Source: Candidatus Levyibacteriota bacterium (GTDB lineage Bacteria > Patescibacteriota > Microgenomatia > Levybacterales > UBA12049). From it: 64,000 bases of DNA. Positions 8,695 through 34,836 of the stretch are shown here, piece by piece; position 1 is the first letter of the stretch; each line of letters begins with the position of its first letter. The notes beneath the pieces are model-generated. The model did not search any database. It was not told the origin of the DNA and saw only the letters and a list, made by a program, of their open reading frames with translations. Location: NCBI GenBank assembly GCA_041906785.1, contig JAYRIM010000021.1:17881-81880 (forward strand), in the 5' to 3' direction. The position numbers were made by a program, and so were the translations under genes.

Positions 8695-8702
8695 ATTATG
8701 AT

Positions 8703-18182: not shown

Positions 18183-18334
18183 TTTTTTTTACTTATTTCT
18201 ATTATAGGGAGAGGTGGTTGGGTTACCCCAATCTCACAAATGCTCAATAAAGCGCAAAATTGCTTCAAAAAGTTTTTATGGATTATATCCACCTCCCCCC
18301 GATGTTAAATAGGGGGGAACGCAACGCAATAAGT

Positions 18335-18995
18335 TTATCTGATAGGAACTACTTCAACTGAGCCACTGTTACCTACTTTGACCTGCCAACGCTGAGTCAT
18401 CGTAGGTCCACAGACGAACTTAACGACCAAGCGTACGTTAAACACACCAGGATCTACATACACATGAGTCGCAGTTGGCATGGAACTTGTTATCGGAGAA
18501 GAAGCACCTCCATCTGTCCATATTACATAGCTGCCAGTTATTTCCCCAATCGTAGGTCTCCAGCACGTATCCACTCAATATCTCCGTGAAACACGACTGA
18601 AAAACCGTTCGGATTGATACATGTTTAAAGAAAATGAATGATGGGAAAAAGATAAATTTGTACAGTTAATTGAATATTTTACAGGTAAAATGAGCGTGAA
18701 GTATGAAGAAGAAATGATGGGAGAACGTATTTGAAAATCTATTGTTTCGCTAAACAAGCAACAAAAGATTTTGAAATATTTTCTCCGACATTACGCCACT
18801 ATTGAGTGCGTACTCCAGCACGACTTGTGACGGGATACCCGAATACTTCAACTGGGAACGAAGTTTCTCGTTTCCGGTACATGGCTGTTGATTGCAGGCT
18901 ACCAGAAATAACCCTACTATCAACAAGGTTGCTGAAATTACTAGTCTGTGCACTGGGAAGTCCTTTCTAAGCTTTTGCGTTTGCGTTCCCCTCAA
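18335..18995 (-). pseudogene. possible disrupted gene: lipoprotein-like N-terminus (LLIVGLFLVAC lipobox) followed by two further ORFs in shifted frames
   Basis: Three consecutive minus-strand ORFs (18750..18995, 18575..18757, 18335..18574) in different frames; composition more GC-rich than neighbours. Confidence 0.25.
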
Positions 18996-19198
18996 TGCTT
19001 AATAATTCCATTAGATGAATAAGATTCTTCGCTCTACCCCTGTCTCTCCCGACTTACGTCGGGATCGCAGGCGCGAACTCCTTCGCTTTGCTCAGTCCGT
19101 TTGCTCAGAATGACATTCGGAAATTTACAAAGCAATGAGGGAACACAAATTGTGAAAGAGCGATATTTAATCAAGATAATACTGCCTTTCTATGCAGC

Positions 19199-21085
19199 TT
19201 GCAAGTTTTTCACTATAATGAATATATGAATTTATTTTTTAAGTTCTCTACTAAGTTGTCGAAATATATTTTATTTTTGAGTTTTATTTTTTATTTCTTC
19301 TCTTTTATTTTTTATATACCCAACGTTTACGCTGAAGACAACTTTATAACTGATTATCATATTATTTACACAGTTGCCGAGAATGGTATGACAAATGTCG
19401 TGATGGATGTAACGCTTACAAATGCCGCTGATGATTATTCATATGCTTCTTCATATTCTATTCAGCTTGGTTTTGAGAATATCTCGAATGTTAAAGCATC
19501 TGATCTAGGTGGATTCATAGATCCGAAGGTTGAGAAAAATGAAGATGGAAATAATATATCGATAAAGTTCAACCAAAAAGCTGTAGGTATTGGCAGTAAA
19601 CAATTTTTTTCAATATCCTTTTTAACGCCTGATATTGCGAAGAAACAAGGTGAAATTTGGGAAATCAATATTCCAGGCATAGCAAATCAGGATACCTTCG
19701 ATTCATTTGATGTCGATCTTCAGGTGCCTAACAATTTCGGAAAACCTGCGTATATTAAACCCAGACAGGAAAGCGACACATTACATTTTACAAAAGAACA
19801 GTTAAGCACGTCAGGTATTTCAGTCGCATTCGGTGAGAAACAAACATATGAATTTTCACTTATTTATCATCTGAATAATAAAAACCTTTTCCCTATTCGA
19901 ACAGAAATTGCCTTGCCTCCCAATACAAACTATCAAGAAATAAATATTGATTCTATGACACCAGAACCAAAAAAAGTTGAAAAAGATACAGATGGAAATT
20001 GGCTGGCAGAATACGAATTGCTTCCTGGGGAAAGTAAAGATGTATGGGTTACAGGAAAGGCACAAATATTTCTCCAACCGAAAAAAGAAATTTTAAGCGA
20101 AGAGGAATTAGCGCACTATTTAAAAACAGATCAATTCTGGGAAATAGAAAATGAAAAAATAAAATCAAAAGCTCAATCTCTGCGTACACCTGAAGCTATT
20201 TACTCATATGTAGTAGATACTTTAACATATGATTTCTCCCGCGTAACAAGTAATAAAAATAGATTAGGAGCACAAAAAGTCATATCTGATCCAAAATCTG
20301 CTGTTTGTCTAGAATTTACAGATTTATTTATCGCTTTAGCTCGTGCTGCCGGTATTCCTGCAAGAGAAGTAGATGGGTATGCCTATACAGAAAATCAGCG
20401 AGATAGGCCATTATCACTCGTACAGGATATTCTTCATGCTTGGCCAGAATATTATGACCGTGAGAAAGAGATGTGGATTATGGTCGACCCGACCTGGGGA
20501 AATACTACTGGAGGAGTAGATTACTTCCATGTTTTAGATTTCGATCATTTAGCTTTCGTAAAGCGTGGTGTTAGCAGTACATATCCTATTCCTGCGGGAG
20601 GATATAAAAATACAGGTGATGAAAATAAAAAAGATATTGCAATTTCTTTTTCAGAGAAAGATATCTCCCAGAGTTCTACCATAACTCTCGAACCATATAT
20701 CGCATCTTCTTATACAGCAGGGTTTCCGATAGATGGGACAATAACAGTTATTAATAAAGGTCCAGCTGTAAGTACAAGCACTGCCGTATCTATTTTCTCG
20801 AGTACTCTCTTACCGGGAAATCAGAAAAGTTATGTAAAAGATATTCTGCCATTTGGAAGAAAAACTGTACGATTTCAATTCCAAAAATTACCATTTTTGA
20901 CAAATGCTACACACACAATTACAATCAGCGATGGAAAAAATGAATTCAGTAAAACTATTGAGGTCATACCATTCTTAGTTAAAGACTGGAAGCTGAAAGG
21001 AGGAATTATTGGTGCAATACTCGCGTTCATCATATTTATCTTTGCCATCAAAACCCGGCGTTTACCAATTTCTCGACGCAAGTAA
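19199..21085 (+). CDS. transglutaminase-like cysteine protease domain membrane protein
   Basis: N-terminal TM; SAVCLEFTDLFIALARAAGIPAR (Cys), LHAWPEYY (His), MVDPTWG (Asp) triad of the transglutaminase-like superfamily; C-terminal TM. Confidence 0.6.
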   Translation: MQVFHYNEYMNLFFKFSTKLSKYILFLSFIFYFFSFIFYIPNVYAEDNFITDYHIIYTVAENGMTNVVMDVTLTNAADDYSYASSYSIQLGFENISNVKASDLGGFIDPKVEKNEDGNNISIKFNQKAVGIGSKQFFSISFLTPDIAKKQGEIWEINIPGIANQDTFDSFDVDLQVPNNFGKPAYIKPRQESDTLHFTKEQLSTSGISVAFGEKQTYEFSLIYHLNNKNLFPIRTEIALPPNTNYQEINIDSMTPEPKKVEKDTDGNWLAEYELLPGESKDVWVTGKAQIFLQPKKEILSEEELAHYLKTDQFWEIENEKIKSKAQSLRTPEAIYSYVVDTLTYDFSRVTSNKNRLGAQKVISDPKSAVCLEFTDLFIALARAAGIPAREVDGYAYTENQRDRPLSLVQDILHAWPEYYDREKEMWIMVDPTWGNTTGGVDYFHVLDFDHLAFVKRGVSSTYPIPAGGYKNTGDENKKDIAISFSEKDISQSSTITLEPYIASSYTAGFPIDGTITVINKGPAVSTSTAVSIFSSTLLPGNQKSYVKDILPFGRKTVRFQFQKLPFLTNATHTITISDGKNEFSKTIEVIPFLVKDWKLKGGIIGAILAFIIFIFAIKTRRLPISRRK

Positions 21086-22346
21086 CACAGTTATTTATGT
21101 CGGTAAAGCAATTGATCTTAAATCTCGAGTCTCTTCTTACTTCACAAGCTCTTCACAACTAGGAGAGAAAACTCGGTTGTTAGTTTCTAATATAGAAAAA
21201 ATTCGTATTACACTTGTCGAGTCAGAACTCGAAGCATTATTACTTGAAGCGTATTATATTAAAAAACATAATCCTAAATATAATATTCGCTTAACAGATA
21301 ATAAAGCATATATTCTTGTCCGTATAACCATGAAAGACATATACCCGAAAGTGCTGCTGGCGAGAAAAATGGAATATCCAGAAGATATCTATTTCGGTCC
21401 TTTTCCAAATTCAGGCGCAGTGAAATTAGTATTAAAAACAATCCGGAAAGTTTTCCCTTTTCAATCTGTTGAAAATCATGCAAAACGAATTTGTCTTTAC
21501 AATCATTTAGGGTTATGTCCGTGTCCTCCAGTAAACGATTCCCTTGAGTTACGAAAACAATATAGAAGCAATATACGTAATATTATTCGGATTTTTGAAG
21601 GACAGTCACATAAAATACTGTCTGAACTCGAAAGAGAGCGAGAAAAACTAAGCGAGGAAGAACGCTTCGAGGAAGCTGGATTTATGCAGAGAAGAATTAA
21701 CGCTTTAAGCTATATTACACAACCGTTTCATAAACCTCATGAATATGAATTTAATCCAAATTTACGATCTGATTTGCGTGAAGAGGAACTTATGAATTTA
21801 CAACAAATTTTACGAGAGAACGGATGTCTTGTGACTTCTCTGGAGCGTATTGAATGCTATGATATTTCCCATATCCAAGGTACAAATACAACAGCTTCTA
21901 TGGCTGTCTTTATTAACGGAGAAAAAGAGTCATCACAGTATCGAAAGTTTAAAATAAGATTGGAAAAGACACCAGACGACTTTGCGAGTATGAAAGAGGT
22001 TCTCCAAAGAAGAATTCGGCATAGCGAATGGTCAATTCCTGGTTTGATAATTGTCGATGGTGGAAAAGGACAAGTCTCTGCAGCATTTGAAGTTTTACGA
22101 CAGATGAAATTAGATCTTCCTTTAATTGGTTTGGCAAAAAGGGAAGAAACCATTGTAATACCTCAATTAACAATGCCAAATGACAAATATCAAATGTCAA
22201 ATAAAATTGGGAATTTGAAATTCACAGAGGTTTCTTTACCTAAAGATGCGAAAGCGCTTCACCTGATTCAAAGAATAAGAGATGAAGCTCACCGGTTCGC
22301 AATAACATACCATAGAAAACTAAGAAGTAAAGGAGTAACTAAATAA
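21009..22346 (+). CDS. uvrC: excinuclease ABC subunit C, short form lacking C-terminal (HhH)2 domain; TTG/GTG start overlapping upstream gene by about 75 nt
   Basis: GIY-YIG: PGVYQFLDASNTVIYVGKAIDLKSRVSSYF; UVR-like RFEEAGFMQRRINAL; RNase-H-like endonuclease domain YDISHIQG...IIVDGGKGQ; no in-frame ATG upstream of GIY-YIG. Confidence 0.8.
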   Translation: MVQYSRSSYLSLPSKPGVYQFLDASNTVIYVGKAIDLKSRVSSYFTSSSQLGEKTRLLVSNIEKIRITLVESELEALLLEAYYIKKHNPKYNIRLTDNKAYILVRITMKDIYPKVLLARKMEYPEDIYFGPFPNSGAVKLVLKTIRKVFPFQSVENHAKRICLYNHLGLCPCPPVNDSLELRKQYRSNIRNIIRIFEGQSHKILSELEREREKLSEEERFEEAGFMQRRINALSYITQPFHKPHEYEFNPNLRSDLREEELMNLQQILRENGCLVTSLERIECYDISHIQGTNTTASMAVFINGEKESSQYRKFKIRLEKTPDDFASMKEVLQRRIRHSEWSIPGLIIVDGGKGQVSAAFEVLRQMKLDLPLIGLAKREETIVIPQLTMPNDKYQMSNKIGNLKFTEVSLPKDAKALHLIQRIRDEAHRFAITYHRKLRSKGVTK

Positions 22347-22351
22347 AATGG

Positions 22352-22436
22352 ACTAAAGGAGACAAGAGAGCCAAAGGTTCCAAACGGATAAAGTTACCTT
22401 TGTCTCATCTGGCTCTTCGGTCTCTTATGGAACCTG
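22352..22436. repeat. composite palindromic intergenic repeat, copy 2
   Basis: GGAGACAAGAGAGCCAAAGGTTCC...ACCTTTGTCTCATCTGGCTCTTCGGTCTC between convergent uvrC and SBP genes. Confidence 0.6.
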
Positions 22437-22441
22437 GAAGC

Positions 22442-23803
22442 TTACTTTCGAATCAGTTCATATTCTTGGGGGAAATAGAGAAATGAGGCTGGTGCTTCAT
22501 CAAGGAGATATTTTTGAAAGTCTGTATATATTTTTATTCTTTCCTCATCATCTACTGTTTTTCGGCCATCTTCCAATAGCTTATCTATGCGCAAATTTCG
22601 CAACTTTGTAATATTGTTTGCCTGTGCTGAATGCCATAAAGTATATTGATCTGGATCTTTTGGAACATTAAATTCACCCAAGAATACTTGGAATTGGTCC
22701 GGTATCGTATCTGCGTCATTTATTGTGACTATAAAACCAAGCTTCTCCCATGCTTTCGAAATAGTTTCTGCTGTGGTTTTATATTTTTCTAATGAAGTTA
22801 TAGTAATTTTTGGTTTAGCACTGGCACTAGCTTGTTCCAGAGCAGAAGAAACCAGGAGACTTGCATGGTTAAGATCTTGTCGTCTCGCTGCTGTATCTGG
22901 GTTACTGTATTTAGATTTTGGTGGGTAAGGATTGTATGTACGAATTCCTTCTCCAAACGTATCAGGTAGTGCATAGGTAAGACCATTACGAATTTTTTTA
23001 TCAGAAAGCAAAGGATCTTGAGTATTATAAAAAAGTGTAACTAATGTACCGTAGTTTACCTGTTTTTTTATAGAAATATTTTGAAATTTGCTAAAATCTA
23101 CTGTTTGTAATGTAACTGTGTTCACGCGTGCAATTTTAGTAATTTCCCCAAGTGCCATAGCAGTTTTTAATGCATCTATAGTCGGATAAAAGATATATGT
23201 TTCATTCTGTAAGGAATCTTTTCGTGAAACTAATTGAATAGTCTTTAGGAATTCTCCGTTCAGCTCAAGTTTATGTATTTTATAGTCCCCAACACCTATA
23301 AGATTTTTATAAAAAATAGGCCGTGAAACAGTTACAAGGAAGGGCGCATACGGTTCTTTTAAGTTAAATTCGATAGTATAGGGGCTCGGTTTCTTAATAG
23401 TAACTTTTGAGAAAGAATAGCTCACTTTATCTGAAGTAAATGGTTCACCGTCAGAAAACGTTATGTCTTTTTTTAAATAGAAAGTATATCTTTTACCTTT
23501 ATTTGAAATTTTCCAAGAAGATGCTAAATCTGGTGAAATAGTGCCACCCTGTGAGACTTTTGTTAAACCTTTTGCGATTTTATTCACTATGAATGAAGGC
23601 ATGTTTTCCGTTCGGTAAGCACCTGAAATGCCTATAATCGTCTTTCTGTGAGTTGGAATAAGTTGAAGAAGAAGTGGATAAAAATTAACTAATAAAAGAA
23701 AAATTCCTAACCCTATTAAGAAAAAAAGGAAAAATTGCTTTCCCCAGCGTTTAATATATGCCTTAATCAACCAAAACAAGTATCGTCGTCGGATTACAGC
23801 CAT
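22442..23803 (-). CDS. extracellular solute-binding protein family 5 (OppA/DppA-like), membrane-anchored
   Basis: N-terminal TM then SBP_bac_5-like core (ISPDLASSWKISNKGKRYTFYLKKDITFSDGEPFTSDKV). Confidence 0.5.
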   Translation of the reverse strand: MAVIRRRYLFWLIKAYIKRWGKQFFLFFLIGLGIFLLLVNFYPLLLQLIPTHRKTIIGISGAYRTENMPSFIVNKIAKGLTKVSQGGTISPDLASSWKISNKGKRYTFYLKKDITFSDGEPFTSDKVSYSFSKVTIKKPSPYTIEFNLKEPYAPFLVTVSRPIFYKNLIGVGDYKIHKLELNGEFLKTIQLVSRKDSLQNETYIFYPTIDALKTAMALGEITKIARVNTVTLQTVDFSKFQNISIKKQVNYGTLVTLFYNTQDPLLSDKKIRNGLTYALPDTFGEGIRTYNPYPPKSKYSNPDTAARRQDLNHASLLVSSALEQASASAKPKITITSLEKYKTTAETISKAWEKLGFIVTINDADTIPDQFQVFLGEFNVPKDPDQYTLWHSAQANNITKLRNLRIDKLLEDGRKTVDDEERIKIYTDFQKYLLDEAPASFLYFPQEYELIRK

Positions 23804-23814
23804 AATTAAAAATC

Positions 23815-23880
23815 GTATAACGTGTAACTTGTAACGTATTGCAAAAGATTGTACGTTACACGTTATGCGTTACACGCTCC
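23815..23880. repeat. ACGT-rich inverted repeat CGTATAACGTGTAAC...GTTACACGTTATGCG
   Basis: Arms reverse-complementary; between secG stop and SBP gene start. Confidence 0.5.
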
Positions 23881-23887
23881 ATGGGAA

Positions 23888-24100
23888 TCATTGGGGTATT
23901 ATTAGTAGCGCAATTGAAAACACAGCCAGAAGAGCAGCAGAAAGAACAGTGAGGTAAATGAGAAGCTTTTCAATATTTCTTTTACTGCGGTACATTTCTC
24001 CCCCTCCACCGAAGACTGGAGATAATCCTCCGCCCTGTGATTGGAGTAATACACAGACTATTAAAAGTATGGAAACGAGTATTTGAGCAATATATAACAT
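23888..24100 (-). CDS. secG: preprotein translocase subunit SecG
   Basis: 70 aa, two TM, LLQSQGGGLSPVFGGGGEMY glycine-rich SecG signature. Confidence 0.6.
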   Translation of the reverse strand: MLYIAQILVSILLIVCVLLQSQGGGLSPVFGGGGEMYRSKRNIEKLLIYLTVLSAALLAVFSIALLIIPQ

Positions 24101-24104
24101 GATA

Positions 24105-24140
24105 GTTATGAGTTGTCAGTTGTCAGTTGTCTGTCAGTCA
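24105..24140. repeat. heptamer repeat array GTTATGA-GTTGTCA-GTTGTCA-GTTGTCT-GTCAGTCA directly upstream of secG start
   Basis: Read directly; same word family as 14297 and 25877. Confidence 0.8.
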
Positions 24141-24192
24141 TGCGCAAAGGATAAAAAATATTTACTGATCACTAAATACTGAAAGCTGAGTG

Positions 24193-25173
24193 CTATTTAT
24201 TATAGAGATTCATGATTGCAGATGCAAGTTTATTTGACTCATGATAAATCGGAAAGTTTTCATCTACAAGATCTGAAAAAACGAGATGGTATTCCTGCAG
24301 CATGTCTTTATTTTTTATGTGTTCGACATATGTATATGATGTATGCTCATCCTTTAATGGTATTGACTTATTTCCATTAACGAGAACATCATCAAATGGA
24401 AATATGCCAATGTGTTTTTTAATGGCTTCAATAAAATCATATACTGTGTATCCTTCAGTTTCTTGGGGTTTGTTCGCGACGTTTACTATATATGTCTTTC
24501 TGGCTTTTGACTTTAAAAATGCTTCTTTGATCAATGGTACGATCAATACAGGAAGTGTTGTAGTATATAAATCTCCCGGACCTACAATAATGATATCTGC
24601 TGTATGAATCGATTCAATCGCTTTTTGTGATACTGAGGGATTTTCTGGAGTAATAAAGATTTTATCTATTTGTGGTTTACCTTCGTATTTTCCTAAATCT
24701 ATATTCTCTTCACTGTGAACTGTCACACCGTCTTTCGTGACTGCTGAAAGTGTGACAACTTCATTCGTGGCTGGATAAATTTTCCCGCTAGCATGAACTA
24801 AGCGTTGGATAAGTTCTACTGCATCATCGTAATCACCAGTAATCTCTTTTGCTGCAATAAGCATCAAGTTTCCTAATTTCTGTCCGCCAATTTCACTATC
24901 TGCACCATATCTATCTCCTGGAAAGCGGTACGTGAGAAGTTGCGCGATATTAGGATGGTCATCTCCACTTAAAGCTGCAATGCACGAAACCAAATCGCCA
25001 GGAGGTAGTGTATTAAATAATCTCCGTAAGCGTCCACCTGATCCGCCATCATCTGTAGTGGTCGCTACAACTGTAATATTATCAGCGATTTGTCGCAGTC
25101 CACGGATAAGTGTGACAGTTCCAAGCCCTGATCCAAGGCAAACAATACGCTTATTTTTCAAATCCTTTTCCAT
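24193..25173 (-). CDS. YvcK/CofD-family (UPF0052, gluconeogenesis-factor-like) protein
   Basis: RIVCLGSGLGTVTLIRGLRQ N-terminal glycine loop and ATTTDDGGSGGRLRR motif typical of the YvcK/CofD family. Confidence 0.6.
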   Translation of the reverse strand: MEKDLKNKRIVCLGSGLGTVTLIRGLRQIADNITVVATTTDDGGSGGRLRRLFNTLPPGDLVSCIAALSGDDHPNIAQLLTYRFPGDRYGADSEIGGQKLGNLMLIAAKEITGDYDDAVELIQRLVHASGKIYPATNEVVTLSAVTKDGVTVHSEENIDLGKYEGKPQIDKIFITPENPSVSQKAIESIHTADIIIVGPGDLYTTTLPVLIVPLIKEAFLKSKARKTYIVNVANKPQETEGYTVYDFIEAIKKHIGIFPFDDVLVNGNKSIPLKDEHTSYTYVEHIKNKDMLQEYHLVFSDLVDENFPIYHESNKLASAIMNLYNK

Positions 25174-25297
25174 AGATTCTATTTGTTGACTTTAGTTCCT
25201 GTATTTTACTTTAAAGTATCGAAAGTATCAGATTATTACTAATTAGAAAATCCAAAGCCTTCGATACCTTTGGTACTTTTCATACTTTTGATACCTC

Positions 25298-25702
25298 TTA
25301 TTTTATGAGCCAGCGTATTGTACCTGAAATCAGAGATAAAGCAAGAGCAGCGAGAATAAATGCAAATAGTGTATTAACCTTAATCGGATCAATAGAAAAC
25401 CCTGCCAATGACGCTCCAGGAAATTTATACTCCATTATGCTTACATTCGGTACGAAAACTGTTAGAAGATAGAGAATTAAAGCGTTCGTTATGACTGAAA
25501 ATAGCCCCATCGTAATGACATTAAATGGAAAGGTCAGTACTGAAAAAATAGGTTTCACAAAAACAAAAAGTAAAGAAAGTGCTACTCCACCAAGAATAAG
25601 CGTAAATGCTCCTCCGACGATTTTTACACCGCCTACAAAATGAGGTAAAAGAAAAAGGGATAAAGCATAGATAGCTGTATTCCTGAGCAGTGGTTTAAGC
25701 AT
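25298..25702 (-). CDS. DUF360/holin-like 4-TM membrane protein
   Basis: 134 aa, four TM helices, pattern typical of YvlD/phage-holin-4_2 family. Confidence 0.45.
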   Translation of the reverse strand: MLKPLLRNTAIYALSLFLLPHFVGGVKIVGGAFTLILGGVALSLLFVFVKPIFSVLTFPFNVITMGLFSVITNALILYLLTVFVPNVSIMEYKFPGASLAGFSIDPIKVNTLFAFILAALALSLISGTIRWLIK

Positions 25703-25876
25703 GAGCGTTTTACCATTATACTGCAGAGAAATAGAAGAAACAATCTTTTGAGTTTCAAAGAGTCAAGGTTGCAAAGTTACTTGAAAAAATAAAACAGCTC
25801 ATCTATAATATAGGCCTATAGTCGATTTTCGGCTATTTTTATTTGCACATTGAAACAGTGACGGAATCGGGAATAT

Positions 25877-25961
25877 GGTTATCAGTTATGAGTGGTCAGT
25901 TGTCAGTTTTTGAATAAATTATATCTCACAACCCATAACTCATAACTGACAATTGATAACC
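25877..25961. repeat. 85-bp inverted repeat built from heptamer words (GGTTATCAGTTATGAGTGGTCAGTTGTCAG ... CATAACTCATAACTGACAATTGATAACC)
   Basis: Arms reverse-complementary with few mismatches; sits immediately 5' of the second GC-rich islet. Confidence 0.8.
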
Positions 25962-26109
25962 ATTTTTCCGGTTTCGTCCGAAGGAAAGCCTCAGAAAGGA
26001 GGGAAAGGCTTCAGGGACATGGTGGCGCAGCCACCCCGGACATACTCGCTTTTATAGGAGTATGCCTCAAATTCAGTAGACCGCCAGGAAGCGGTCTGGG
26101 AGGGGAAAG

Positions 26110-26532
26110 ATGTCTCGCTTGCGTCTTGAATTCGTTGGTATTCTCGCGGTGCTGCTTGCATTCGCAGCAGGTTCCGCATATGCCAGCGACTCGACAACAG
26201 AATCGGCGACTACGAAAGTCGCCAACCAGTACAGCGTAGATTGTACTGCGTACCCTGTACCGGGATCGAATCCGCCGCAGCACAGTCGGACGCCGAATGG
26301 GCAGACGGGTGTGACTATCCGAGACACAGGTACAATCAATGACCCCAACGGGGTCGTGTACCAGTGTTGGTCAGGAAATTGGAACCCAGTCACCCGGTGG
26401 AAGCAGCCCGAGGTGCAACCACAGCCACAACCCGCTCCGGGCGATCGTTGGTGGTGGACGCCATGCACGCGCTGCCAATGGGTAGCTGCGCCTACGCAGA
26501 AGGCTACCCGGACCACATACCGTCGGCGCTAA
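26110..26532 (+). CDS. GC-rich small secreted Cys/Trp-rich protein (140 aa), hypothetical; could alternatively be non-coding structured RNA
   Basis: GGAGGGG SD before ATG; signal peptide MSRLRLEFVGILAVLLAFAAGSAYA; 6 Cys, W-rich; GC3 bias only moderate and a 147-aa ORF exists on the opposite strand, so coding status uncertain. Confidence 0.35.
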   Translation: MSRLRLEFVGILAVLLAFAAGSAYASDSTTESATTKVANQYSVDCTAYPVPGSNPPQHSRTPNGQTGVTIRDTGTINDPNGVVYQCWSGNWNPVTRWKQPEVQPQPQPAPGDRWWWTPCTRCQWVAAPTQKATRTTYRRR

Positions 26533-26555
26533 CTTCAGGCTTGTTCTGTCAGCGG

Positions 26556-26580
26556 CTTCATGGGGTCGGGCGATCGGCTC
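26556..26580 (+). terminator. hairpin GGGGTCGggcgatcggctCGACCCC followed by TCATGATTTCT
   Basis: 7-bp GC stem with T-rich tail 24 nt after stop of 26110..26532. Confidence 0.4.
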
Positions 26581-26649
26581 GACCCCTCATGATTTCTCGC
26601 TTTCCTCCAAAAACTTGCATTATTTTCTTAATTGGATTTTTCCGATTTT

Positions 26650-26712
26650 TGACGATTTGTAGGTTTCCCTTCCGGCGCAATATAGTATAAGAACAAAAAG
26701 ATTTTATGCTCT
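26650..26712. other. 63-nt near-perfect hairpin CCTTCCGGCGCaatatagtataagaac...ctcttatactaGCGCCGGAAGG
   Basis: 11-bp outer stem plus 11-bp inner stem read directly. Confidence 0.6.
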
Positions 26713-26770
26713 TATACTAGCGCCGGAAGGCATGTGCATAACCAAGTACCGAATAGTACTTGGTAAAGAG

Positions 26771-26812
26771 AAACCCACCTATGAGTATACTCAAACGGTG
26801 GGTTTTTTATGG
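26771..26812 (+). terminator. rho-independent-type terminator AAACCCACC...GGTGGGTTTTTTAT (possibly bidirectional, abuts stop of minus-strand 26807 gene)
   Basis: 9-bp stem followed by T6. Confidence 0.5.
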
Positions 26813-27430
26813 TTTTCTAATATAAGGGTTTGACCCTTTTTGCATGATACTTGGAAAAGAGGATTTAGTCTGTTGTTTATTTTGCTGGTTTTGATTTGTA
26901 TTAGATTTCTGAATTTGACCAGTAGTATTTTTTAAAGGGGATTTATTTTTATTTGATTCATAAAGCTGAAAATAGTCTGGATTCTCTGTAGGACTATATT
27001 GGCGGGCTTCATCAATATCATGGGATCCTGTGTACTTACTAATAATCCATTTTAATGGAATTGAAAATACTATTCCAATAATAACTGCAGCAGTCATCAA
27101 TAATATATTAAAAAATATCACATAACCGATTGTTAGGGTTAGTGTCGGTGTTTGGAATGATATACTTTCTGCAGTCAGACAGGCAGCTTGTAAACCATTT
27201 AAAGAACAATGAAAATCGATTAATGGGTAAAGAGCGGTGAACAGAACCCCAATAGAAAAGATTGGAATAAAAACGATAGAAAGAATAAAAATGGTTTTTT
27301 TGCTTAATTTCAAAGGAAGAATTAAACCAACGACTAATCCGCTCACAATAAGTAACATTGCAGGGTTAGCAAGTAATCGGATATATTCTACAAAAAAATT
27401 GTTCAGGTTCATAGTTGTATGATACAACAA
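26807..27430 (-). CDS. membrane protein with Q/N/K-rich C-terminal tail, hypothetical
   Basis: 4 TM segments then low-complexity QKSNTNQNQQNKQQTK. Confidence 0.35.
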   Translation of the reverse strand: MLYHTTMNLNNFFVEYIRLLANPAMLLIVSGLVVGLILPLKLSKKTIFILSIVFIPIFSIGVLFTALYPLIDFHCSLNGLQAACLTAESISFQTPTLTLTIGYVIFFNILLMTAAVIIGIVFSIPLKWIISKYTGSHDIDEARQYSPTENPDYFQLYESNKNKSPLKNTTGQIQKSNTNQNQQNKQQTKSSFPSIMQKGSNPYIRKP

Positions 27431-27501
27431 TTTAGCAATTTAACAATACAACAATCTAATTTACTCTCTTGCATATTTCATATGATGTTGTATAGTGGTT
27501 A

Positions 27502-28755
27502 ATGCTATCTTCAACCACTATGAATACAATTCTTTGTCCTCATTGTAAAAAAGCTGTAGAAATCTCAGAAGCATTATCCCATCAATTGAAAGATGAGATA
27601 TTAAAGGAAGTAGATGGGAAACATAAAGAAGAACTAGAAAAAATCCGTATTGAAGCAGAAGCAAGAGCAGCAAAACGTGCCGAAGAAGCATTAGCGCTTC
27701 GTTTAAAAACGTCTCAAGAAGAAGTAGAAGAAACGAAGAAACGGAATAACCAACTCCAAGAACAACTATCAGAACTATTAAAAAAACTTCGTGATATGGA
27801 ACAAAAAGACAGCGAACGAGAATTAGAAATGCAAAAACAATTATTAAAAGAACGAGAAATGATGGAAATGGAGATAGCCAAATCCGAGCAAGAAAAAGCA
27901 CGATTAGATAAAATGGAATTACAAAAACAGCTTGATGATACGAAAAAAGCGCTCGAAGACGCTCAGCGAAAAGCGCAACAATCCTCCCAGCAACTTCAAG
28001 GAGAAGTTCTCGAGTTAGATCTTGAGCAACAACTACGAACAGAATTTTTAACCGATGAAATAACACCTGTTCCGAAAGGAGTAGATGGAGCAGACATCAT
28101 TCAGAAAGTGAGAAATAAATTTGGGCAAATCGCCGGATCAATTCTTTGGGAAACAAAAAGAACGAAAGCATGGAGTAACACATGGTCAGCGAAACTTCGC
28201 GAAGATGTTCGAACAATGGGTGCTGAAACTGCTGTATTAGTGAGCGATGTTCTTCCAGCAGGGATAGAAACATTTGGTTTTTATGAGAATATATGGGTTT
28301 CATCTTATCGCTATGCGTTACCGCTTGCTTCAGCATTGCGTATAGGTCTCCTCCAAGTAGCCAGAGCTAAATCTGCTTCAGCGAATAAAGATGAGAAACT
28401 AGAAATGCTTTATCAGTATCTTACAAACACAAGCTTTAAGCACCGATTCGAAGCGCAAGTAGAAGCTATAATAGAATTACGACAGGATTTTGAAGCAGAA
28501 CAGAGAACGATGACAAGATTATGGAAAAAGAAAGAAATGCAATTGCAACGAATGACGAAAAATGTTGCAAGCCTATATGGTGAATTACAAGGTATACTGG
28601 GCTCAGCACTTCCAGCTATTCAAGGATTAGAAGTAGATCATATGCTAGATTCTGGAACTTCTACATTGGATTCAGTAAACGGAAATATAAAAAACGGAGA
28701 CTTATTTAGTGACGGAAAAGAAACGTATGAAAAAGCAGATTCCACCCTCCTTTAA
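27502..28755 (+). CDS. DUF2130-like protein: N-terminal CxxC zinc ribbon, long coiled coil, conserved C-terminal domain
   Basis: CPHCKK motif, about 150-aa E/K/Q-rich coiled coil, C-terminal globular region. Confidence 0.45.
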   Translation: MLSSTTMNTILCPHCKKAVEISEALSHQLKDEILKEVDGKHKEELEKIRIEAEARAAKRAEEALALRLKTSQEEVEETKKRNNQLQEQLSELLKKLRDMEQKDSERELEMQKQLLKEREMMEMEIAKSEQEKARLDKMELQKQLDDTKKALEDAQRKAQQSSQQLQGEVLELDLEQQLRTEFLTDEITPVPKGVDGADIIQKVRNKFGQIAGSILWETKRTKAWSNTWSAKLREDVRTMGAETAVLVSDVLPAGIETFGFYENIWVSSYRYALPLASALRIGLLQVARAKSASANKDEKLEMLYQYLTNTSFKHRFEAQVEAIIELRQDFEAEQRTMTRLWKKKEMQLQRMTKNVASLYGELQGILGSALPAIQGLEVDHMLDSGTSTLDSVNGNIKNGDLFSDGKETYEKADSTLL

Positions 28756-29440
28756 TGAAGAAAAACTTCTCTGGGCGCAAGGAATTTCGCATGTTGTAGG
28801 TATTGATGAAGTAGGTAGAGGTGCATTCGCCGGACCGTTGGTGGCAGCTGGAGTTATTTTTAATCCATGCTTATGCAGTTCGTTAGAACAATGTGAACGA
28901 TGCGTTCAAAAAGAACTAAACGAAATTCATGACTCTAAATTGCTTACACCAACTAAGAGAGAAGAACTTAGTCTATATATTCAAAAAACTGCTTTTGCTT
29001 GGAGCATAGCAGAAGTGTCAATTTCAGTTATTAATCGTATTGGCATAGGAAAAGCTACTCAGATTGCATTTAAGAAGGTAGTATCAAGTATTTCGTATAA
29101 AGTATTATGTATAAATCAAGAAAGAAGTAAACAAAAAATACATAATACACGGAGTTTCTTTCTTATTGATGGTTTTCCAATTGAGAAAATGAAAGGAGAC
29201 TCTCAAAAGGCCATAATTAAGGGTGACCAAATAAGTATTTCCATAGCAGCAGCTTCTATTATTGCAAAAGTGTATAGAGATAAACGTATGAAAGAATATC
29301 CAGAGAAATATGCTATGTATCACTTTGATAAACATAAAGGGTACGGGACAAAAGAACATCAAGAAGCGATCAGAAAATATGGTTTAAGTGATATTCATAG
29401 AAAATCATTCCACTTATCGAAATTTACTACTTCTCTATAA
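28727..29440 (+). CDS. rnhB: ribonuclease HII
   Basis: VVGIDEVGRGAFAGPLVAAGV (DEVGRG), DSKLLTPTKRE, GDQISISIAAASIIAKVYRD motifs; likely ATG 28727 overlapping upstream gene end. Confidence 0.8.
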   Translation: MKKQIPPSFNEEKLLWAQGISHVVGIDEVGRGAFAGPLVAAGVIFNPCLCSSLEQCERCVQKELNEIHDSKLLTPTKREELSLYIQKTAFAWSIAEVSISVINRIGIGKATQIAFKKVVSSISYKVLCINQERSKQKIHNTRSFFLIDGFPIEKMKGDSQKAIIKGDQISISIAAASIIAKVYRDKRMKEYPEKYAMYHFDKHKGYGTKEHQEAIRKYGLSDIHRKSFHLSKFTTSL

Positions 29441-29529
29441 CGCTTCGTAAAATAAGAGAATTAAAAAAGAAAGTAATACTGATCTATTGACAGACTACAT
29501 AAACTGAGAGCATAGTGTATTTAAAGAGG

Positions 29530-29547
29530 TATGTGATCTAGATCACA
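29530..29547. promoter_or_regulatory. perfect 18-bp palindrome ATGTGATCTAGATCACAT, candidate operator about 30 nt upstream of 29579 start
   Basis: Self-complementary sequence read directly. Confidence 0.3.
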
Positions 29548-29578
29548 TGATATTTCCTCTGAAAGGGGGTGATAGTAC

Positions 29579-29974
29579 ATGGATTTTAAAAATGTTCTTA
29601 CTCCTCGAGGTTTTCTTTCACTAGGTGGGGTTGTCCTCGTCCTCGTAGGTGTTTTAGGCTTCTTAGGTGTTATCGGTCCCACAGCTCAACAAAGTCTTTT
29701 TGGTGATGCATGGTGGTTTGATAATGCTGAAAATGTAGCTCACACCGTACTCGGTGTAGTAGCTCTTTTAGCTCCTATGGTCGTAAAACAGGACAATATG
29801 CTGAAATGGTTAGTCACTGTTGTAGGATTAGTTGGACTTCTTGTCGGACTATACAACTTTACCAGTACACAGTTACTAGGTGCGAATTTAGAAAGCCCAG
29901 CAGATCTCGTTTTACATCTCGTAGTAGGTGCTTGGGGGCTCGCAGCCGGCCTCATGCCGAGAAAGACTGCGTAA
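29579..29974 (+). CDS. small 4-TM membrane protein, hypothetical
   Basis: 131 aa, GAGGG/GGGTG RBS-like upstream, strong terminator downstream. Confidence 0.4.
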   Translation: MDFKNVLTPRGFLSLGGVVLVLVGVLGFLGVIGPTAQQSLFGDAWWFDNAENVAHTVLGVVALLAPMVVKQDNMLKWLVTVVGLVGLLVGLYNFTSTQLLGANLESPADLVLHLVVGAWGLAAGLMPRKTA

Positions 29975-29993
29975 TTACATATTGTATTTATCA

Positions 29994-30027
29994 GAACCGC
30001 ATAGATATCTATGCGGTTCTTTTTTTG
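29994..30027 (+). terminator. rho-independent terminator GAACCGCATAGATATCTATGCGGTTC + T7
   Basis: Perfect 11-bp stem and U-tract. Confidence 0.8.
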
Positions 30028-30141
30028 TTTTAATCCACTTCTTTCCGTGCTCACAAATAAAGAGATTGAAAGGTTTTTGTAACATTTATATCAAGTTTGA
30101 TGAATCATAGATGTTTATAGTATAGCCATAAGGAGGAACCT

Positions 30142-31497
30142 ATGACTTTTGAAAGAAATAGCCAATCCTTAAGATTTAAAACTATACCATCCCGAACAAG
30201 TTTTATTCGGGATTATAATGTTACTCCAATTCGCGTGTCTTCTGTACATCCTTTTAGTGCAGAAAGGATGAAACAAACATATTTTCATTCGAAAGCAGGA
30301 CCTCGTTTTTCACCTGAACAGAATGTTTTTCTCAAAAGTTTTAGTAAAAATGTAGAAATATTTAGTAGCACCCCTAGAAAACATCAATCGAGTGAAATAC
30401 CACGAATCCGGAAACCAGATGTAAAGCCCTATAATCCTCTTCCTTCTATAGTTCATGAAGGTCCGGTTTCTCAAAGGGATTTGAATAGAAGCCGAGTTGA
30501 ATGGAAAAACGATAGTAGCGAAAAAAGAATAAAGAAAAGTGAAAATATTACAAGATTGAATGAAAAGCCACATTTATTCAGACGAGGTGATCAAATAGGC
30601 GCAAAACCTGAATCTACAAATGAAAGATTACGGGTGACACGTGAAACATTAAGAAAGGAAAAAAGTGATTATCGCCAAACACATATTGAGCAAACTGTTC
30701 AAGCAGTATCAGCAATTAGAACTGAACTCCGTACAATAAGACAAGAATATTCTCCTTTTAGTGCAAAAACAAACGAGCAAACAAGAAAATCTACTCCAAA
30801 AGATTCATTATATGCATTGATGAAATTAATGCAAAAAGCAAAAGCAGTAGAAATGATGCTTGAAGGAAAAAAATTAAGTAGAAAAGAAGAAAAATTATTT
30901 ATAAAAATGAGAAAAACGTTAAGAAAACAACAAGAAAAGATAATGAGATTCCGAAGAAAACTAAAAGAAAAATACCAACGTCTTCGAGAAAAAGCTCTAA
31001 TACGAAAAGAACAACAAAAAAGACCAAGTGGATTTGCAGTAGATTATTTGATGAATATGAATAGAGTTATGCTAGTGAAACAAGCATATGAGTTTGCGAA
31101 AGGTCACAGAACATTTTTAACTACAATTCTGAAGGGTAATACCATTACAGGAAATGAAATAGCAAAATATATATCTGTTAGATCAAAATCATTAAAAAGT
31201 AGAATACGGGAGCTTAAAGGAAGAGCACGCGATGGGGGACTGGTACTGTTTAAAAACTTTATTAAAAGTATTGGAAAAATTGAATCAGTTCAGCAAGCAG
31301 AAGAACATGCTAAATATGCAGCAAATCAATATCCTGCTGTTGTCCGAAGTAGATATGATGAAGGACTTGATGGATATGTGCGGAATGTCGTATTAATGGA
31401 TAGAAGAGATAAGGAAGAAGAACAAAAAAATCGAAAAGTTACTACGAATCACATCGTATTTCCTGCAAGAAATCATCAAACTGCTTTAGCTGCTTAA
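30142..31497 (+). CDS. highly basic K/R/E-rich 451-aa protein, hypothetical (coiled-coil, possible nucleic-acid binding)
   Basis: Long ORF with GGAGG RBS; composition-biased; no family recognised. Confidence 0.35.
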   Translation: MTFERNSQSLRFKTIPSRTSFIRDYNVTPIRVSSVHPFSAERMKQTYFHSKAGPRFSPEQNVFLKSFSKNVEIFSSTPRKHQSSEIPRIRKPDVKPYNPLPSIVHEGPVSQRDLNRSRVEWKNDSSEKRIKKSENITRLNEKPHLFRRGDQIGAKPESTNERLRVTRETLRKEKSDYRQTHIEQTVQAVSAIRTELRTIRQEYSPFSAKTNEQTRKSTPKDSLYALMKLMQKAKAVEMMLEGKKLSRKEEKLFIKMRKTLRKQQEKIMRFRRKLKEKYQRLREKALIRKEQQKRPSGFAVDYLMNMNRVMLVKQAYEFAKGHRTFLTTILKGNTITGNEIAKYISVRSKSLKSRIRELKGRARDGGLVLFKNFIKSIGKIESVQQAEEHAKYAANQYPAVVRSRYDEGLDGYVRNVVLMDRRDKEEEQKNRKVTTNHIVFPARNHQTALAA

Positions 31498-31498
31498 T

Positions 31499-33160
31499 TT
31501 AAGAAGCCTGTTTCTGATGAGGATTTTCTTCTATCAAATATTGTGCGGCATATGCTTCAGTTACATCGATTTTCTTATGGGGATTAAAAATAGAATCTGG
31601 GTCGAAGATTTCCTTTATTCTTTTAAATATACCATACATTTCTTTTCCAAACATTTTTTCTAAATAAGGGCTTCGTATTAAGCCATCATTATGTTCACCG
31701 GTGAGTGACCCACCGAATTTTAAAGTCAAATCAAAAACTTTTTTTCCCACAGAATATATCTTCGCTCGTTCCTTCGGATCTGATAAATCCATAAGCGGGA
31801 TAATATGGAAATTGCCATTTCCTATGTGTCCTGCAATTGTTGCTTGGATATGAGATTCATCAATTATTTTATATAACTCAGGGAGAAATTCCGGATAGAC
31901 TTCAGGTTTTACACATGTATCATCGATAAACGGCGCAGCGTATTTATTTTTTACGTGATGTCGTAATAAATTAAAACTTTCTCTGCGGATAGCCCAGTAT
32001 TTTTTTCGCTCTGATTCATTATGTGTGATTTTTAATTGTAGATTATCAAATTGAATCAGTTCATCAGATAAGGATTTAAGCTTCTGATGTATAGTATGAA
32101 TACTATCATCTTCAAATTCTACGAGTAGAACTAGTTTAGGCATACCTTTGGCGAGCACATATGCGTATTCAGGTAAAAATTGCTTAATTGTCTGAAAAGG
32201 AGAAGATTTTAAAATGGGTGAAAAGCCGGTAACATATCGAAGTGCTAATCGGAGTGTATAATGGTCAAATGTCTCAAAACTATCAGGATTATAGGAAAGA
32301 ACTTTTTTAACAATTTCAGGAAGATTATCTAAATTATCTAAATATGCGACAAGTAGACCGTGATGCTTCTTTTTCTGTACTACTTTCAATGTTGCTTCTG
32401 TAATCAACCCTAGTGTTCCTTGCGAACCAACAAACAATTTAGTCATATCAAAATGTTCTTTATCCCAAACTCGCCAGATTGTATATCCGGCAGAATTTTT
32501 TGAAACATCAGGTTTATATTTCTGAATCTTTTCATAATTCGATTCAACTAACTTAAATACCTCCCGATATACTTGTCCCTCAAAGGTTTTTAAATCCATT
32601 TTCTTTTCTAGTTCGCTTTTCGTAATTTTAGTGAAAGTATACACATTCCCATCTCTTAAGATAACTTTTAAAGAAGTCACGAAATCTTCAGCCTTACCAA
32701 ACTGTAACGATTTTTCGCCTCCTGCATTATTCGCCACTATTCCACCTACAGCACATAAACGTTTAGAGGACGGATAGGGGGGATATATAAGATCATGTTT
32801 TAGTAATTCATGCTCAAGATCTCTAAAATAAACTCCTGGTTCTACCACGGCTTCGTTGTGAGAAATCTTATGGATTTTATTAAACTTTTCAAATGCGATA
32901 AGAATAGACTCAGTAAGCGAACCCCCACTCATACAAGTACCTGCAGCACGGGCTGCTACTGATAAATGGGGATGTATGTGTTTATGTTCGTTTAAAAAAT
33001 GTATAATTTTTTGCAGATCTGCTACAGATTCCGGAAAAACAACTGCAAGCGGCTTCATTTGGAAAACACTCGCATCTCGTTTATATTTCTCACGAGTTTC
33101 ATCGTCAAGGAAAACCTTGTTAGGTAGTAATTGTTGGAGTTGGGCCAGAACGTTTATCAT
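31499..33160 (-). CDS. FAD-linked oxidase (GlcD / D-lactate dehydrogenase-like)
   Basis: FAD-binding PCMH motifs GTCMSGGS, VVEPGVYFRDL, CAVGGIVANNAGG; C-terminal FAD-oxidase_C. Start trimmed to Met 33160 because the track start lies inside the palindromic repeat. Confidence 0.65.
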   Translation of the reverse strand: MINVLAQLQQLLPNKVFLDDETREKYKRDASVFQMKPLAVVFPESVADLQKIIHFLNEHKHIHPHLSVAARAAGTCMSGGSLTESILIAFEKFNKIHKISHNEAVVEPGVYFRDLEHELLKHDLIYPPYPSSKRLCAVGGIVANNAGGEKSLQFGKAEDFVTSLKVILRDGNVYTFTKITKSELEKKMDLKTFEGQVYREVFKLVESNYEKIQKYKPDVSKNSAGYTIWRVWDKEHFDMTKLFVGSQGTLGLITEATLKVVQKKKHHGLLVAYLDNLDNLPEIVKKVLSYNPDSFETFDHYTLRLALRYVTGFSPILKSSPFQTIKQFLPEYAYVLAKGMPKLVLLVEFEDDSIHTIHQKLKSLSDELIQFDNLQLKITHNESERKKYWAIRRESFNLLRHHVKNKYAAPFIDDTCVKPEVYPEFLPELYKIIDESHIQATIAGHIGNGNFHIIPLMDLSDPKERAKIYSVGKKVFDLTLKFGGSLTGEHNDGLIRSPYLEKMFGKEMYGIFKRIKEIFDPDSIFNPHKKIDVTEAYAAQYLIEENPHQKQAS

Positions 33161-33248
33161 AAGGGACCTAAGAGCCAGAAGAGCCAGAGGTACCAAAGGC
33201 TTAAACATTTGTCTCCTTTGGCCCCTTTGTCTCTTTTGGAACCTCTAA
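33161..33248. repeat. composite palindromic intergenic repeat, copy 3
   Basis: AGAGCCAGAAGAGCCAGAGGTACCAAAGGC...CATTTGTCTCCTTTGGCCCCTTTGTCTCTTTTGGAACC. Confidence 0.65.
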
Positions 33249-34274
33249 CTATTTTTTCATTACACATTTCACTGCTTCTTTTATCGCAGGAATGTCCATA
33301 TGGTATTTAGCAAGTAATTCTGGTGTTTTACCGGATTCTGCAAATGTGTCTTGCAAACCTATAAATGCCATTTTCGTTGGTCGTTTTTTAGCAAGTATCT
33401 CTGCGATCATGCCACCCAATCCTCCAGTTACTTGGTGATCTTCGACAGTGACAACTGCTCCTGATTTATTCACAGCCTGAATAATCTGATCCTCCTTAAT
33501 AGGTTTGATAGTCGGAACGTTAAACACGTCTACAGAGATATGTTCCCCTTCAAGTTCTCTAGCTGCAAGCAACGCATGATAGGTCATGTAGCCCATCGAA
33601 AAAATAGTTGCAATTGGTGCATCTGATTTCCAAAAATGTTGAATACTTCCAAGATCAAAAGGGGTTTCTTCAGTAGTCATCACAGGAGTTTTATCCCGGG
33701 TAAATCGTATATACACAGGACCGTCGGTTTCAGCGGCTAGAATCGTTACCTTTTTACCCTGTAACGCATCAACAGGGACGAAAATACTCATTCCAGGCCA
33801 GGCACGGGTTGAAGAAATATCTTCAGTTGCTTGATGAGTAGCGCCATCAGGACCGGTCATTATTCCCGCATGATGCCCGGCTATTTTAACATTGGTTCGA
33901 TTATAAACAGCAGTAGTACGTATAGTTTCCCAGTTCTTACCTGGCGAAAAGGTAGCATATGAGGATATAAAAGCTGTTTTTCCAGCTGCAGCGAGTCCAG
34001 CGGCAACTGCTGCCATATTTTGTTCAGCAACACCGCATTCGAAGAATCTATCAGGATATTTTTTTTCAAAACCGTTAGCTTTCGTGGATTCTGAAAGATC
34101 AGCAGTTAACACAACAACATTTTGATTTTTTTCACCGAGAATTTCAAGCCCATCACCATACCCTTCACGAGTCGCCCGCTGCTCAACATCTTTATCGAAT
34201 AATTTCGAATTTAATTTAAGGTCAGGATTTAGCATATTATTTTTTACAACATTTTGTTTTTTCAAAAAAAACAT
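33249..34274 (-). CDS. transketolase, C-terminal (pyrimidine-binding + C-terminal domain) subunit
   Basis: ECGVAEQNMAAVAAGLAAAGKTAF, GPDGATHQATEDI motifs. Confidence 0.8.
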   Translation of the reverse strand: MFFLKKQNVVKNNMLNPDLKLNSKLFDKDVEQRATREGYGDGLEILGEKNQNVVVLTADLSESTKANGFEKKYPDRFFECGVAEQNMAAVAAGLAAAGKTAFISSYATFSPGKNWETIRTTAVYNRTNVKIAGHHAGIMTGPDGATHQATEDISSTRAWPGMSIFVPVDALQGKKVTILAAETDGPVYIRFTRDKTPVMTTEETPFDLGSIQHFWKSDAPIATIFSMGYMTYHALLAARELEGEHISVDVFNVPTIKPIKEDQIIQAVNKSGAVVTVEDHQVTGGLGGMIAEILAKKRPTKMAFIGLQDTFAESGKTPELLAKYHMDIPAIKEAVKCVMKK

Positions 34275-34836
34275 TGCAACAAGAAAAATTCCTGTGAATT
34301 CTAAAGTATTGATTAATTATGTTAATTTTATATCGGTTTAATCATTTCTAGTATTCTTTCTAGACAATAATAATTAGTAAGACCAGTTCTCTTTGTTGGT
34401 GAAATTAAATCACTTAAAAAAGATGGACAATCTGGAAAACGAATAGTTCGCACATTTTCATCTATAAATGGTTGAGATGCTAAAACAATAATAAAATCAA
34501 ATAACAGTATTTGTGTGGTTTTATTTTTCATTAAGTTACTTATATTTACTACGAGTTAAAATTTTCTTTTTAAAAATTATTTTTAATATAATAATATAAT
34601 ATAGAACAATCGTCCATGAGATAATAAGTGTGGGAAGAAGTAATGAAATTTTTCTATCAAAATTACAAGATCCTACGACAGCGCCTGATAACGGATAGCA
34701 TAGTGTTGGCCATAGAGTAATTGAAATTCCTAACAATTTGAGTAAGAAATCACTTAGTATAAATGTAAAAATTGCTAATACTATTGCAATACTTAATGCA
34801 ATTATATTATTATTCCTCTCTTTTCTTTTAGTAGAA

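Follow-up and report, generated by a model that had tools for sequence, protein, structure and literature searches.

A small GC-rich islet of foreign composition at a variable intergenic site of a Levyibacteriota genome, with an orphan candidate gene for a secreted protein

How does about 0.66 kb of conspicuously GC-rich DNA come to lie between two genes of a Candidatus Levyibacteriota bacterium, and does it encode anything? The DNA in question, which we call islet 2 (25965-26600), lies in a stretch of 64,000 nucleotides of contig JAYRIM010000021.1 (assembly GCA_041906785.1, positions 17,881 to 81,880); this stretch is hereafter the window, and positions are those of the window unless another contig is named. 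The central feature of the islet is ORF140, an open reading frame (ORF) of 140 codons on the plus strand (26110-26532), with an ATG start, a ribosome-binding site and a signal-like N-terminus. We incline, with modest conviction, to the reading that islet 2 is a recent foreign GC-rich insertion at a variable intergenic site, carrying an orphan gene for a small secreted protein.

Islet 2 is DNA of foreign composition. Its GC content over 25965-26600 is 58.2%, where a first-pass annotation of the same DNA had put it at about 60%, against a mean of 36.4% for the window (standard deviation 6.5% in 150-nt windows), and 100-nt windows inside the islet range from 54 to 67%. Only one other stretch of the window, at 1887-3215 (islet 1), is comparably GC-rich. 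Because the non-coding leader and tail outside ORF140 are likewise GC-rich, the excess is not explicable by amino acid composition alone. Codon usage deviates as well: GC at third codon positions (GC3) is 0.60 in ORF140 against 0.17-0.35 in host genes, and its relative synonymous codon usage correlates at -0.27 with that of the host and at +0.45 with that of the islet-1 ORF.

The islet is also an insertion relative to related bacteria. To its right lies a minus-strand gene for a fast-evolving membrane protein of 207 aa (26807-27430), convergent to ORF140, and to its left a minus-strand PF04020/yvcK/secG cluster running from 25702 downward, whose YvcK/CofD-like protein has its nearest named relatives in Levybacteria and the 'Patescibacteria group'. 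The corresponding site was surveyed in seven contigs of relatives found by exact protein look-up, five of them from lineages with 71-74% YvcK identity. The orthologs of the membrane-protein gene and the PF04020 gene are separated by 24-70 nt in L002 (GCA_034680565.1), in a contig of JGI 3300050046 and in L058, whereas the gap in the present genome is 1104 nt, so that about 1 kb at this site is lineage-specific. The earlier view of islet 2 as a compositionally foreign insert is thus strengthened, both by the syntenic loci of relatives that are without it and by its deviant GC and GC3. The zone into which it is set is variable, and can be called a hot spot of plasticity, since L003 differs in its insert and L059 has no membrane-protein gene, with DUF2130 adjoining the PF04020 gene directly. 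The L003 insert, about 930 nt at the same intergenic site (6617-7600, and likewise 8617-9600 in L062), contains a 188-aa ORF without family match and has 48-49% GC on a background of about 40%. Searches for closer relatives added little: two scans of genome contigs gave nothing or only YvcK at 35% identity from Lactobacillaceae, and a scan of metagenome contigs gave YvcK at 37% identity or less over most of its length (short fragments up to 49%).

The edges of the insertion are marked by a 13-nt direct repeat that occurs in just two copies in the window, exactly at the two composition edges: a left copy at 25962-25974 (ATTTTTCCGGTTT) and a right copy at 26636-26648 (ATTTTTCCGATTT), both on the plus strand. 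Between them they enclose a 661-nt core (25975-26635) of 57% GC without terminal inverted repeats. In a post hoc test, 1 of 300 shuffles gave boundary windows that agreed at 12 of 13 positions; the repeat may be a target-site duplication or a recombination footprint. The islet is real. Logan contigs from run SRR26835457, produced by a different assembler, match the window at 18193-26315 and at 26289-34755 with 100% identity; they are 12.0 and 11.6 kb long and each spans one AT/GC junction, so that both junctions are supported by independent reconstruction. This speaks against the chimeric junctions about which the first-pass annotation had cautioned.

Whether the insertion holds a gene is less readily settled. 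Judged from its sequence, ORF140 is rather probably a real, translated gene, and the coding call is favoured, if insecure. The ribosome-binding site and the 140-aa ORF described at first pass are both present, with GGGAGG (26098-26103) 6 nt upstream of the ATG. An ATG-initiated ORF of at least 140 aa arises in 4.1% of first-order Markov versions of the islet, and such an ORF together with a signal-like N-terminus in 0.02% of them. Two of six frames are stop-free (P = 0.0075), and these two share third codon positions, as in real GC-rich genes; stop codons per frame number 0, 3, 2, 1, 0 and 6, against about 4 expected. The ORFs on both strands and the weak GC3 bias that had first cast doubt on coding are borne out by an antisense ORF of 147 aa and by a flat distribution of GC over the three codon positions of ORF140 (0.57/0.60/0.60). 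The initial hedge between protein and RNA was therefore justified, the coding evidence being genuinely mixed.

If translated, ORF140 would yield a secreted protein. A Sec signal peptide is predicted for codons 1-25 (26110-26184, plus strand), with the N-terminus MSRLRLEFVGILAVLLAFAAGSAYA and cleavage before residues SD: Arg at positions 3 and 5 is followed by the hydrophobic stretch FVGILAVLLAFAAG and then by a cleavage site between AYA and S. This agrees with the signal peptide proposed earlier, and was scored by a home-made heuristic (charged n-region, h-region of 12-15 residues, small-x-small site) that is partly post hoc and is matched by 0.36% of random islets, counting any ORF of at least 60 aa. 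The mature part (115 aa) is net basic, rich in Thr, Pro, Gln, Val, Arg and Trp, and devoid of Leu, Met and Phe. The product has seven Trp and four Cys, not the six cysteines first counted, and the Cys include a CxxC motif. With its Sec signal, basic mature part, Trp enrichment and paired Cys, the protein presumably resembles Sec-dependent bacteriocins; unlike these, it has no sequence or profile similarity to any bacteriocin family and no immunity or export genes nearby, and its 115 aa and largely disordered prediction are atypical of them. A cell-surface, host-interaction or antimicrobial-like role is a guess. The AlphaFold models of this protein and of the islet-1 protein (mean predicted local distance difference test score, pLDDT, 43 and 33, respectively) were too poor for fold searches.

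Part of the case for an imported gene in islet 2, as opposed to noise, is that islet 1, at the other GC-rich stretch of the window, has the same layout and is clearly coding. Islet 1 (1887-3215, 61% GC) carries at its upstream edge a long hairpin (1822-1921; z -8.7 for folding relative to shuffled sequence), has a structured leader, continues with a plus-strand ORF (2162-2971) of 269 aa preceded by AAGGAGG and starting with a signal peptide, and has a GC hairpin past the stop. The ORF has a GC3 of 0.70, codon periodicity at p = 6e-7 and a Fourier signal of at least 2.65 in all windows, and the islet is confirmed by a Logan contig (L005, equivalent to 1648-3261 of the window). Its protein is a strict orphan in a search of 5.8 billion clusters. 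Both of the two GC-rich islets of the window thus encode signal-peptide orphans, with no relatives among about 15 billion predicted proteins, and this orphan status suggests either an unsampled donor gene pool or very fast divergence. The islets share no DNA similarity, and a single protein family for the inserts was rejected: ORF140 resembles neither the islet-1 protein nor the protein of the L003 insert.

In size, the insert corresponds to one transcription unit: a structured leader comes first, then a ribosome-binding site with a single ORF, and last a GC hairpin. As a plus-strand promoter the sole candidate is a TTGAAA-17-TATAAT site with 11/12 matches (25781-25809), about 300 nt upstream of ORF140; four sites as good occur in the 64 kb (both strands) against 2.45 expected by chance, and its assignment as the promoter of islet 2 is suggestive only. 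Directly after it on the plus strand comes a short palindrome (ATAGTCGATTTTCGGCTAT) with a T-run (25818-25845), which could be a terminator or an operator. An imperfect hairpin of 119 nt follows (25860-25978; z -6.66), formed by inverted heptamer arrays (GTTATCA/GTTATGA/GTTGTCA) in two 49-nt arms (25860-25908 and 25930-25978) that are 73% complementary, the right arm ending where the insert starts on its left side. These arrays are also present in further intergenic regions (14296-14328, 14847-67 and 24105-35, with an inverted CGTGTAA/ACGTTAC array at 23814-76), and the hairpin is for this reason taken as host intergenic repeat DNA and not as part of the insert. The 85-bp inverted repeat said to bracket the islet proved to be this single imperfect hairpin on the left side only; being one-sided and built of host heptamer arrays, it was rejected as a bracket. 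A long AT-rich hairpin precedes each of the three inserted ORFs, at 1822-1921, at 25860-25978 and at 6756-6802 of L003, the last with 23-nt arms that are 87% complementary. These hairpins may be insertion targets or insulators, or their position may be coincidental.

Within the insert, the GC-rich leader (25975-26109, plus strand) does form four consecutive hairpins before ending in GGGAGG, though its folding barely beats that of shuffles (z -1.92; 8 of 200 shuffles as stable). The GC hairpin, 63-nt near-perfect hairpin and classical terminator reported downstream are all present. The GC hairpin (26558-26591, plus strand; -23.2 kcal/mol, z -4.62) lies 26 nt past the ORF140 stop and has a weak U-tract; the GC-rich core stops about 10 nt beyond it, and it is probably the imported gene's own terminator. 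The 63-nt hairpin (26668-26730; -33.1 kcal/mol, z -7.84) lies outside the direct-repeat core and may be of host or of insert origin; its outer stem is GC-rich and 11 bp long, its inner stem has 10 bp, and there is a bulge of 4 nt. After a perfect 9-bp hairpin (CCAAGTACcgaataGTACTTGG, 26741-26764; z -6.0) comes the intrinsic terminator (26768-26812; -20.7 kcal/mol, z -4.95), with a 12-bp stem and T6 on the plus strand; its stem-loop (26768-26808) and T6 abut the stop codon (26807) of the gene for the 207-aa membrane protein, and it is probably bidirectional. The description of the islet as highly structured therefore stands for its flanks, the whole 3' region folding at z -9.35, and fails for the body of ORF140 (z -1.96 and -1.56).

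A number of results weigh against a working gene in islet 2, or against its insertion as a discrete event, and have to be set beside the reading we favour. Codon periodicity is absent from ORF140 (chi-square of base by codon position, p = 0.28): the frame plot is flat, and the Fourier N/3 signal of 1.33 is no better than that of shuffles, against a host median of 5.4, with 1.6% of host 420-nt coding windows as low and islet-1 windows at 2.65-4.7. This weakness is explained in part by the low complexity of the mature protein. Neither partial ORF is among the genes called at the Logan contig ends, and the single-sequence AlphaFold model of ORF140 (pLDDT 43) is essentially disordered. The protein search proposed at first pass was run and found no homolog at all: a word search of 5.8 billion clusters gave only self-hits or nothing, a full phmmer scan of 1.84 billion protein representatives gave no homolog, and there was no match in Pfam, NCBIfam, PHROGs, PADLOC or PDB sequences, in viral contigs, or in plasmid and phage collections (DNA and tblastn). 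No donor or homolog in another lineage emerged from any protein or DNA search, which returned self-hits only, and Pfam gave no match to the remaining frames of the islet, the antisense ORF of 147 aa among them. In addition, the direct repeat was tested post hoc and has no counterpart at islet 1, and neither an integrase nor a transposase adjoins islet 2, nor is there an adjacent tRNA. The flat frame plot, the strict orphan status, the uncalled partial ORFs, the disordered model and the depletion of stops in several frames are what would be expected if the foreign DNA is real and ORF140 is non-functional, a captured fragment of GC-rich DNA, acquired for instance through competence and illegitimate recombination, that is neutral or decaying and whose open frame and signal are due to chance or are relics. 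We consider this unlikely, although it deserves to be taken seriously, given that an ATG, a ribosome-binding site, a 140-codon frame and an n-h-c signal with an AXA site coincide in only about 2 of 10,000 random islets, that precisely one complete ORF is contained in the insert, with a start, a stop and a terminator-like hairpin of its own, and that islet 1, of the same layout, is clearly coding. The lack of periodicity, the ORFs on both strands and the many local hairpins would also suit a structured non-coding RNA gene or a cis-regulatory RNA in which ORF140 is incidental. GC-rich intergenic stretches in AT-rich genomes are often structured RNAs, and over its full length islet 2 gives a more stable fold than its shuffled versions (plus strand, z -4.9; minus strand, z -4.2; 20 shuffles). 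Nevertheless, the RNA explanation seems very unlikely. The Rfam scan suggested at the outset (Rfam 15) gave no relevant match at gathering score or at E <= 10, the best matches being plant microRNA hairpin models at 25 bits against 86 needed; neither the ORF body nor the leader folds beyond z -2, whereas an ORF-free candidate in the same window reaches z -10.6/-13.5 and is conserved in relatives. The absence of the islet from the syntenic site in relatives means that it is not a conserved host RNA, and a signal-peptide ORF is improbable by chance. The RNA option thus gained no positive support.

Two other explanations concern the insert as a whole. A sharp compositional island in a metagenome-derived contig, with a sequence known from one sample only, invites the suspicion of an assembly chimera or contamination, and the Logan assembly does break inside the islet: at 26289-26315, within ORF140, one contig ends and the other begins, with an overlap of 27 nt. 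The two halves of ORF140 are accordingly joined in the original contig only, a point that counts against our reading too, and the join rests on that contig, the continuous reading frame and synteny; an exact look-up of ORF140 in the assembly index gave no match because the Logan contigs break inside the ORF. Even so, a chimera is hardly credible when a different assembler has rebuilt both AT/GC junctions without a mismatch in contigs of more than 11 kb, the reading frame runs on across the break, and the flanks are neighbours in every relative examined, so that two false joins back to the same locus would be needed. Logan contigs of the same run also end just outside islet 1 (1648, 3261), and breaks at the islets may stem from strain variation, from branching of the assembly graph or from GC-rich DNA being poorly covered. 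Highly improbable, too, is a non-autonomous mobile cassette of integron, IS200/IS605 or REP (repetitive extragenic palindrome) type, served by a recombinase elsewhere such as the product of a gene at 7979-8647 that resembles Y1 HUH transposases. Such a cassette would account for a single orphan secreted-protein ORF followed by hairpins, as in integron cassettes, and for the long hairpin just upstream of all three inserted ORFs. An integron cassette was rejected, however, as neither strand of 25900-26850 contains a GTTRRRY or RYYYAAC core; repeated attC-like hairpins are absent from the window, and no integrase domain, integron integrase or array was found among the larger window ORFs that were scanned with Pfam or NCBIfam. 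An IS200/IS605, REP or MITE (miniature inverted-repeat transposable element) was rejected in turn: the hairpins at the two ends of islet 2 are unlike each other, terminal inverted repeats are lacking (best 9/14), and no second copy of the islet or of its ends exists in the 64 kb. Moreover, IS200/IS605 elements make no target duplication, whereas a 13-nt repeat is seen here.

How, then, does islet 2, read as a recent foreign insertion with an orphan gene, compare with known systems? In Patescibacteria, horizontal transfer and genomic islands are reported to be common, and one proposed route is competence (PMC12455944). Like horizontally acquired islets, including these genomic islands of Patescibacteria (PMC12455944), islet 2 deviates in composition and codon usage, varies in its presence between genomes at a syntenic site that is itself conserved, lies in a variable intergenic zone, and carries orphan cargo without known function; unlike typical examples it is very small, a single ORF taking up most of its 0.66 kb or so, has no adjacent tRNA, integrase or transposase and no donor found, and its cargo ORF lacks codon periodicity. 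With integron cassettes it shares a single promoter-less-looking ORF followed by an imperfect palindrome and a composition unrelated to that of the host. The ORFs of integron cassettes are often orphan and often secreted. Islet 2 differs from such cassettes in having no attC cores, array or IntI and in having the 13-nt direct repeat, and the 63-nt hairpin is close to perfect, without attC-type bulges. As with elements derived from REP/RAYT (REP-associated tyrosine transposase) systems and IS200/IS605, hairpins abound around islet 2, and the window holds a gene for a RAYT-like Y1 transposase, yet the hairpins of the islet are unique, mutually unrelated, and unrelated to the 59-nt repeat beside that gene. 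The RAYT-like gene itself (7979-8647, plus strand, 222 aa) has host-like GC3, and its product resembles REP-associated tyrosine transposases (PF01797, E = 2e-9; NF047646, E = 6.6e-15 and 55.3 bits, below the 80-bit cutoff). The 59-nt element lies right after it (8646-8704), recurs past uvrA (18128-18186) at 81% identity and partly at 47778-47805, and may represent a REP-like family.

The Breaker laboratory has reportedly discovered structured RNAs by way of the GC-rich intergenic regions of AT-rich genomes. Islet 2 looks like a member of that class in being a long intergenic region with GC far above the genome and several hairpins, and unlike one in its weak thermodynamic support, its lack of conservation in relatives and its complete signal-peptide ORF. 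A much better example of the class lies in the same window at about 14330-14790 (minus strand), in a 1-kb gene-free region upstream of uvrA. About 450 nt long, this candidate for a new structured RNA contains many tetraloop-capped stems, has a GC content of 52-56% and is free of ORFs of 50 aa or longer; the GC-rich ORF-free stretch (14325-14745) has folding scores of z -13.5 (minus strand) and z -10.6 (plus strand), far better than islet 2. A minus-strand promoter, TTGACA-17-TATAAA (14800-14832), is conserved in L061 and L062, as are sequence blocks of the candidate, the first hairpin having three compensatory pairs. Rfam has no match for it even at E <= 1, and nothing at gathering or permissive thresholds for islet 1 or for the 14.2-15.2 kb region. 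The candidate may be more novel than islet 2.

We propose the following course for the gene that islet 2 would carry. Plus-strand transcription would start from the site at 25781-25809 or from inside the insert, and ORF140 would be translated from the GGGAGG site into a 140-aa precursor. Export by Sec and cleavage after AYA (residue 25) would release a mature protein of 115 aa, basic, rich in Trp, Thr and Pro and with two Cys pairs, that would act outside the cell. The plus-strand transcript would end at the GC hairpin (26558-26591) or at the terminator (26768-26812). The run of hairpins between the insert and the convergent membrane-protein gene most likely serves as transcriptional insulation of the convergent units, and the hairpins at 26558-26812 would also shield the insert transcript and the PF04020/yvcK operon from read-through out of the membrane-protein gene. 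As for the route of insertion, foreign DNA may have been taken up by competence and then inserted by illegitimate recombination, which would fit the proposal already made for Patescibacteria (PMC12455944).

It is tempting to go further, because three cases (islets 1 and 2 and the L003 insert) share the size and layout of a single transcription unit, running from leader and ribosome-binding site through an orphan ORF, of secreted type in islets 1 and 2, to a GC hairpin, and all follow closely on a long AT-rich hairpin. They could reflect an undescribed process of capture in Patescibacteria, by which single foreign transcription units are placed next to intergenic hairpins, through cDNA-like retro-insertion or hairpin-targeted recombination of DNA from a GC-rich host or donor. 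Such a process would draw on a gene pool invisible in current databases. We think it quite unlikely that this is the explanation.

The remaining genes of the window are ordinary bacterial housekeeping genes, among them uvrA, uvrC, RNase HII and a split transketolase. The last is unusual in its arrangement: in a single 753-aa ORF (34837-37098, minus strand), residues 9-428 form a glycerate 2-kinase domain and residues 473-747 correspond to the N-terminal half of transketolase, whose C-terminal half is a separate gene (33249-34274); the fusion is conserved in L002 and L061. Tandem arrays with a period of 7-9 nt are common between the genes of the window, sometimes as inverted pairs (for example at 14296-14328, 22172-22202, 23814-23876, 24105-24135, 33208-33238, 40761-40783 and 59541-59571). 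The arrays of relatives use other units, such as (ATGGTTAC)n and GTGATAC repeats, one of them at 6655-6765 of L002. A family of 9-mers (TTTGTCTCC/TCTGGCTC) occurs at seven or more places.

Taken alone, islet 2 is an ordinary small genomic islet, a recent gene acquisition. Its value lies in being a clean insertion with sharp edges, a possible target duplication and relatives in which the site is empty. If expressed, ORF140 would give an ultra-small and probably episymbiotic bacterium a secreted protein specific to its lineage, and surface and secreted proteins are the likely tools with which such bacteria interact with their hosts. If our reading is true, reduced genomes of this kind still take up single foreign genes and keep them at defined variable sites.

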